64,000 bases of DNA from Shigella phage sb4: sequence record PQ666542; one strand, 5' to 3'. Under the pieces are notes generated by a model. It ran no database searches, was not told the origin of the DNA, and worked only from the letters and a program-made list of their open reading frames with translations. Below are positions 16,616 to 17,264 of the stretch, piece by piece. A program made the translations under genes and the position numbers. Position 1 is the stretch's first letter. The number at the start of each line of letters is the position of its first letter.

Positions 16616-17264
16616 TTAAATAATTTTATCACACATATCATATTGCATTTCTGCTTCTGACAACTTTCTCACAGTTTTCCAATCCGAGCCTTTAAGAAGA
16701 ACGTTCAATTTAACAACTTCAGCGCCTTCTGCTATACGAGAACCATCAATACGAGCTTTAAGTGCTACAATCGTTAGCTTAATATCAGAGGTTTGTTTTG
16801 ATTTAGAAAGCTGAGAAATGTGTTCAATTCGGTTTTCACGTTTTTTTCTGTATAGCTTTAATTTGATTATAAGTCTTTTTGATTTTAGCCCATTTCTCTT
16901 CATCTAAATTTAGTTTATGAACTTTTTTCGCAGATGAACGACCAATTCGCAAAGCAAATAAATCACGCTTTTCAATCAACTCTTCTAAAGTATAATCAGA
17001 ACGAAATGTATTGTACTTTTTCTTTACTGCAATAACATTCCCTTTAATGTATCCAACGTTATTATCAAAACGTTCTAATGATAATTTCTCTCCTTCAATA
17101 CGGTTATCAAAAGGTTCTCCCGAGTAAGCGCAAACTTTCTGATCTAAAATGTTCTTAATGTAATTGAAGTCTAAGTTAAAATCTTTAGAACGTCTTTTAG
17201 CAGATGCCTGAGTGTGCTCTAGACGACATGTAATTTTACGAATTTGATTTTTAGACAGTTTCAT
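16616..17264 (-). CDS. srd: Srd-like protein; probable frameshift in a 7-nt homopolymer
   Basis: track ORFs 16836..17264 and 16616..16903 overlap in different frames; removing one base of the T7 run at 16841-16847 joins them. Confidence 0.45.

Follow-up and report, generated by a model that had tools for sequence, protein, structure and literature searches.

The extra base in the homopolymer at 16841–16847 is most probably a sequence error (probability about 0.87), the technical cause being inferred. The window (the whole stretch of 64,000 nt that was analysed) is best explained as a low-quality record that is noisy throughout, with a split srd gene that is not a new biological feature. This reading is based on four observations: the insertion occurs in the window only, srd carries a further private lesion, like damage is found in essential genes and the substitution profile is that of unselected change. 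Error was favoured over biology because dozens of private changes break genes throughout the window, and several of the affected genes are essential.

In the proposed course of events, one base would have been over-called in a 6-nt run, be it in sequencing, in consensus calling or by later corruption. The record would carry ~0.75% unselected, A/T-biased substitution noise and a few small insertions. The actual phage almost certainly has the usual A6 at this site and a single intact srd gene encoding 248 aa.

The split srd locus and its relatives

The plus strand reads g-ttttttt-c at 16840–16848. On the coding (minus) strand, the T7 run at 16841–16847 is read as A7, and it lies where two ORFs of this strand overlap in different frames. 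The letters and the ORFs confirmed this arrangement, which had been described beforehand. The features of the locus were as follows.

16517..17264, minus strand: srd locus, 748 nt here vs 747 nt (248 aa) in relatives
16836..17264, minus strand: 142-aa N-terminal srd fragment, ending ...KAIQKKT*
16836..16838, minus strand: TGA closing the shifted frame two codons past the run (...AAA AAA ACG TGA)
16616..16903, minus strand: 95-aa ORF containing ...RENRIEHISQLSK...
16616..16618, minus strand: private nonsense codon TAA (Q216*), CAA/Gln216 in the alignment with relatives

Because of the extra base, the Srd frame is lost beyond residue 141. The 95-aa ORF begins with ~20 codons of srd read out of frame, and its remainder comprises Srd residues 142–215. 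With one A deleted, the reading is continuous (...KAIQKKRENRIEHISQLSK...). The preliminary description had expected such a deletion to join the ORFs into a product of about 215 aa. The joining held up, but the intact protein has 248 aa: the joined product ends at 215 aa because of the in-frame TAA at 16616–16618, and Q216* drops the last 33 Srd residues. As written, the window contains no intact ~248-aa Srd ORF, owing to both the +1 insertion at 16841–16847 and the TAA.

The name srd had so far been given on position only. It is now backed by the repaired product, which matched PHROG 1400 'Srd anti-sigma factor' with an E-value of 1e-106 (residues 4–248 vs profile positions 2–249 of 251), and by the DNA, which was 98–99% identical to annotated srd of Tequatrovirus phages, including T2, T6 and RB14. 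The window srd could be aligned over its full length with the CDS annotated as Srd in REP4, Sfk20, SG1 and pSs-1, and the repaired Srd differed from that of pSs-1 at 7 of 248 positions. Sequence searches of Pfam and PDB with the repaired Srd gave no significant match. By homology and position, the split gene is identified as srd.

In pSs-1, REP4, Sfk20, SG1, sb1, sb2, ECp13, ESh16 and Ec_YwIITB1, the region is a single CDS of 747 nt and 248 aa, often labelled 'Srd anti-sigma factor'. The order dda – dda.1 – srd – modA – modB is kept in these nine relatives and is the same as in T4-like phages. Two separate genes were rejected as an explanation: all relatives have one 747-nt CDS, and the 95-aa ORF starts within out-of-frame srd.

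N-terminal Srd residues 15–98 (~16970–17220, minus strand) also matched PHROGs of HNH endonuclease and endonuclease VII (phrog_3322, 3.9e-18; phrog_3118, 5.3e-16; phrog_1035, 1.7e-07). Because of these matches, the sequence comparison suggests that Srd, an RNase E activator, may derive from an HNH-type nuclease fold. In passages of PMC13232886 and PMC7430671 that refer to Qi et al. 2015, T4 Srd is described as binding the N-terminal half of Escherichia coli RNase E and stimulating host mRNA decay.

The run length was then the point to be compared with relatives. In a four-way alignment, the window had one extra A, with a run of A6 in REP4, Sfk20 and SG1. T6/A6 was seen directly in nine relatives, in three of them in this alignment and in six by base-level comparison. 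A 91-nt query with A7 found 497 phage records, none of them ≥99% identical, and the best matches spanned 90 nt, i.e. a one-base gap. The 90-mer with A6 was 100% identical to 262 of the 497 records; all of 60 rows sampled evenly down the ranking were ungapped 90-nt matches, which indicates A6 in each of them. Among IMG/VR contigs, the 35-mer with A7 had no exact match and the 34-mer with A6 had four. The A7 run is private to the window, and A6 with one ORF was found in every relative checked; in the window, a one-base excess splits a single gene. A relative with an equally long run and two annotated genes would have spoken for a natural arrangement; none was found. Relative to all relatives examined, A7 is a defined 1-nt insertion and not a chance overlap of ORFs.

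The second lesion was equally private. A 91-mer bearing the TAA was ≥99% identical to none of 494 records, with the best matches one mismatch away. In total, seven differences within the 748 nt of srd were private: the +1 insertion, Q216*, R13C, K123E, K199R and two silent changes. This density of private changes equals the noise level of the window as a whole.

Private damage across the window

The window covers the left-hand 64 kb of a T4-like genome (Tequatrovirus). Collinearity with Shigella phage pSs-1 begins at base 1, and the identity is 97.27% over 40 kb. We mapped the CDSs of pSs-1 onto the window and counted a CDS as broken when it had an in-frame stop or a frameshift. Broken CDSs made up 19 of 69 in 1–40 kb and 13 of 59 in 40–64 kb, in total 32 of 128 (about a quarter). 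The following lesions lay in named genes.

1088–1090: topoisomerase gp52, private nonsense codon
7249–7251 and 7999–8001: rIIA, in-frame stops
14888..16207, minus strand: dda helicase, private AAA>TAA at codon 358 (15134–15136)
17381..17983, minus strand: modA, private GGA>TGA at codon 32 (17888–17890)
17980..18605, minus strand: modB, frameshift by a private +2 insertion (AT at 18284–18285)
29880..32576, minus strand: DNA polymerase gp43, private GAA>TAA at codon 178 (32043–32045)
33160–33162 and 33454–33456: clamp loader gp62, two private nonsense codons
33815–33817: clamp loader gp44, private nonsense codon
38953–38955: gp47, in-frame stop, lying outside the 34-kb multi-genome comparison for privacy

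Seventeen of the 19 nonsense codons checked (six genomes, 34 kb) were private to the window. Most stops were TAA and arose by transversions such as GAA>TAA, AAA>TAA and TCA>TAA. A reassignment of stop codons was rejected: the stops stand in place of E, K, S, L, G, W, Q, Y and R, and the genes still terminate at normal stops. In T4, gp43, gp44, gp62, gp52 and gp47 are essential. Because private stops lie in essential genes, with gp43 as the key case, a lytic phage with the sequence as written could not replicate.

Further frameshifts were a +G at 20045 (G3>G4; locus 19666–20152), which like the +AT in modB was private among the relatives compared, a –C near 45308 in nrdD (45016–46832), a +C at 43858 (43776–43884) and a +T at 56447 (56398–57133). 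Frameshifts in 40–64 kb were compared with pSs-1 only.

With respect to pSs-1, two CDSs (10990–11409 and 12907–13407) showed stop-loss read-through, which fits this noise. An insertion of 6 nt (TAAATT at 51950–51955), which keeps the frame and makes a short tandem duplication (AAATTTAAATTT) in a 340-aa hypothetical gene, may be natural variation.

A nonsense codon in imm (aa 35, 29207–29209) was common to one relative, probably sb2. The A7 run in the imm region (29280–29286) was common to sb2, in whose record imm is missing from the CDSs. Either a true defect of the lineage or an artefact shared between records could account for the imm lesions.

These data bear on a biological reading of the split, namely a genuine loss of function in which replication slippage turned A6 into A7 and produced a natural srd-null (pseudogene), tolerated in view of the accessory role of srd in host takeover. 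The gene is reportedly non-essential in T4. Homopolymer runs are natural hot-spots of slippage and indels, which counts in favour of this reading and against an error. Two independent lesions in one gene (+1 and Q216*) resemble a decaying pseudogene, dda, modA and modB, accessory genes next to srd, are broken too, and the imm nonsense codon and A7 run common to sb2 mean that a few lesions may be lineage-real. However, private lesions of equal density and type occur in gp43, gp44, gp62 and gp52, which is impossible in a propagating lytic phage. Moreover, the private changes in srd are as dense as the noise elsewhere in the window, and neither A7 nor the TAA was found in any of ~500 relatives. 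We therefore consider a natural srd-null unlikely. Somewhat less probable still is a mixed case, in which A7 is a genuine allele of a live srd-null isolate inside an error-laden record, slippage of RNA polymerase or ribosomes perhaps restoring a trickle of Srd. If A7 were true, it would be no more than the natural inactivation of a host-takeover gene that is non-essential, and of modest interest.

Two further points count against an over-called base. Indels are rare in the noise of the window, and none of the private frameshifts lies in an essential gene, which, according to a rough estimate from gene lengths, would be a chance outcome in ~16% of cases.

Substitution profile, homopolymer runs and sibling records

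In the singleton test, 34 kb of the window were aligned with five relatives. The window had 368 singleton substitutions, 25 of which lay outside mapped CDSs (intergenic). The ratio of transitions to transversions was 153/215 (0.71), compared with 2.2–7 in the five relatives. Codon positions 1, 2 and 3 received 100, 85 and 158 singletons; the singletons of the relatives were dominated by third positions, and random changes would be spread about evenly. The window had 195 missense, 130 synonymous and 17 nonsense singletons (5% nonsense), whereas the relatives had 0–4 nonsense singletons each. The random expectation is 71% missense, 22% synonymous and 6.9% nonsense. Because of the nonsense fraction and the second-position fraction with respect to this expectation, the profile implies that ~70% of the private substitutions would be unselected, i.e. 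~250 in 33 kb or ~0.75%.

The direction of the changes was strongly biased. Of the 215 singleton transversions, 185 led to A/T and 30 to G/C (173 vs 27 in the comparison with sb1), and C>G and G>C together accounted for only 3 of the 368 singletons. A context-free random process (uniform in-silico mutation) was rejected as the source: C>G and G>C are nearly absent, and changes that create homopolymers are enriched ~4-fold.

A/T runs of at least 7 nt numbered 14 in the whole window, nine of them within 1–34 kb. Each relative had 0–1 in the first 34 kb, and 0–2 compared with the 14 of the window, and the clean relatives had none across this 34–40 kb. The runs were located as follows.

1–34 kb: 10–16, 287–293, 11781–11787, 12919–12925, 16841–16847, 23779–23785, 25733–25739, 29280–29286 and 31476–31482
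Beyond 40 kb: runs at 40214, 48939, 49178, 53526 and 58332

Private changes of the window gave rise to eight of the nine runs in 1–34 kb, and the remaining run (29280) is the one common to sb2. The changes that made the runs were mostly substitutions of a lone interrupting base (TTTCTTT>TTTTTTT, AATAAAA>AAAAAAA, GAAAAAA>AAAAAAA). When random substitutions of the same spectrum were simulated on pSs-1, 1.6 ± 1.2 runs were obtained, with a maximum of 6 in 1000 trials.

Private small indels were few: four in 1–34 kb, all of them insertions, vs about 340 substitutions. Three of the four lengthened a run (A5>A7 at 10–11, T6>T7 at 16841 and G3>G4 at 20045). In view of the excess of runs and these run-lengthening insertions, the A7 in srd is part of a trend, seen throughout the window, for A/T runs to be completed or extended. 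As the source, the homopolymer-indel error typical of 454, Ion Torrent or nanopore data is not supported as such, given the ~4 private indels vs about 340 substitutions in 34 kb.

Two sibling records carried the same signature. Shigella phage sb1 (PQ666539.1), from Kolkata lake water, starts at the same coordinate as the window and pSs-1. In its annotation, gp52 and dda are each divided into three CDSs, and rIIA, modB, gp41 and gp43 into two each. Its 272 singletons comprised 114 transitions and 158 transversions, with 146 transversions to A/T vs 12 to G/C. The record of sb2 (PQ666540.1), with the same start coordinate, showed a milder signature, with a split gp43 and four private nonsense codons. 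The signature was absent from the clean relatives pSs-1, ESh16 and ECp13. Both sb1 and sb2 resemble the window in their fragmented essential genes and A/T-directed transversions, but their srd is intact with A6, and the individual lesions vary between the three records. Because sb1 and sb2 carry the signature and the clean relatives do not, it looks like a property of the data-production pipeline and not of phage biology. The records of sb1 and sb2 probably need re-polishing.

The sibling records also bear on the idea that the entire window is a real, defective or degenerate T4-like genome, maintained by helper co-infection or taken from a non-replicating source, with all lesions biological. 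The lesions are indeed spread over the whole window and affect essential and accessory genes alike, and the products of three tested window ORFs (truncated Srd, gp39 and primase) had no entry in a public gene index of very large size. However, the spectrum of A/T transversions and run completion matches that of sb1 and sb2, which were deposited as cultured, plaque-forming phages, and this again indicates the data-production pipeline. In addition, we know of no route by which strictly lytic T4-like phages would arrive at ~0.75% unselected change. A degenerate genome is therefore very improbable.

For the sequence error, as the preferred reading, the consequences concern the use of the record. 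The noise breaks about a quarter of the genes in the window and creates A/T runs that look slippery, and the main value of the finding is that of a quality flag. The window is unfit for mining pseudogenes, split genes, recoding sites, new small ORFs or odd stop-codon usage. Any frameshift, premature stop, split gene or homopolymer in it needs the same comparison with relatives.

Comparison with known recoding systems and T4 srd

A-rich slippery sequences are known to serve recoding, by ribosomal –1 frameshifting in E. coli dnaX and by transcriptional slippage in Thermus dnaX and Shigella mxiE. A corresponding reading of the window would be that A7 is slippery and that ribosomal frameshifting or RNA-polymerase slippage yields full-length Srd next to the 142-aa form. 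The A7 is formally slippery, with a stop two codons on, and in other systems A/T runs are known to cause transcriptional slippage at a low level. Programmed frameshifting or slippage was nevertheless rejected. The site is not conserved, as every relative has A6 and one ORF. The shift would have the wrong direction: the zero frame reads CAG AAA AAA ACG TGA, and rejoining needs +1 or –2, not the –1 of X_XXY_YYZ. For the 101 nt that start with the run, the minimum free energy of folding is –9.5 kcal/mol (z –0.69 vs shuffles), and no stimulatory RNA structure is predicted. The downstream frame is itself broken by a private nonsense codon, and the window has 14 such runs of at least 7 nt, absent from relatives and made by the same noise. 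The run also lacks the features of a contingency locus or a transcriptional-slippage site: it is 7 nt long (typically ≥8–9), and A6 is found throughout the relatives sampled. We give programmed recoding next to no credence.

Compared with dnaX and mxiE, the window is alike in having an A/T homopolymer at the junction of overlapping frames. It differs in the 7-nt length and missing conservation of the run, the +1 or –2 shift, the unstructured RNA and the broken downstream frame. T4 srd, which is also annotated as 'postulated decoy of host sigma70/sigmaS', is the other system for comparison. The window copy differs from it in the +1 after codon 141 and the nonsense codon at 216, with no full-length Srd encoded, while the two are alike in homology and synteny.
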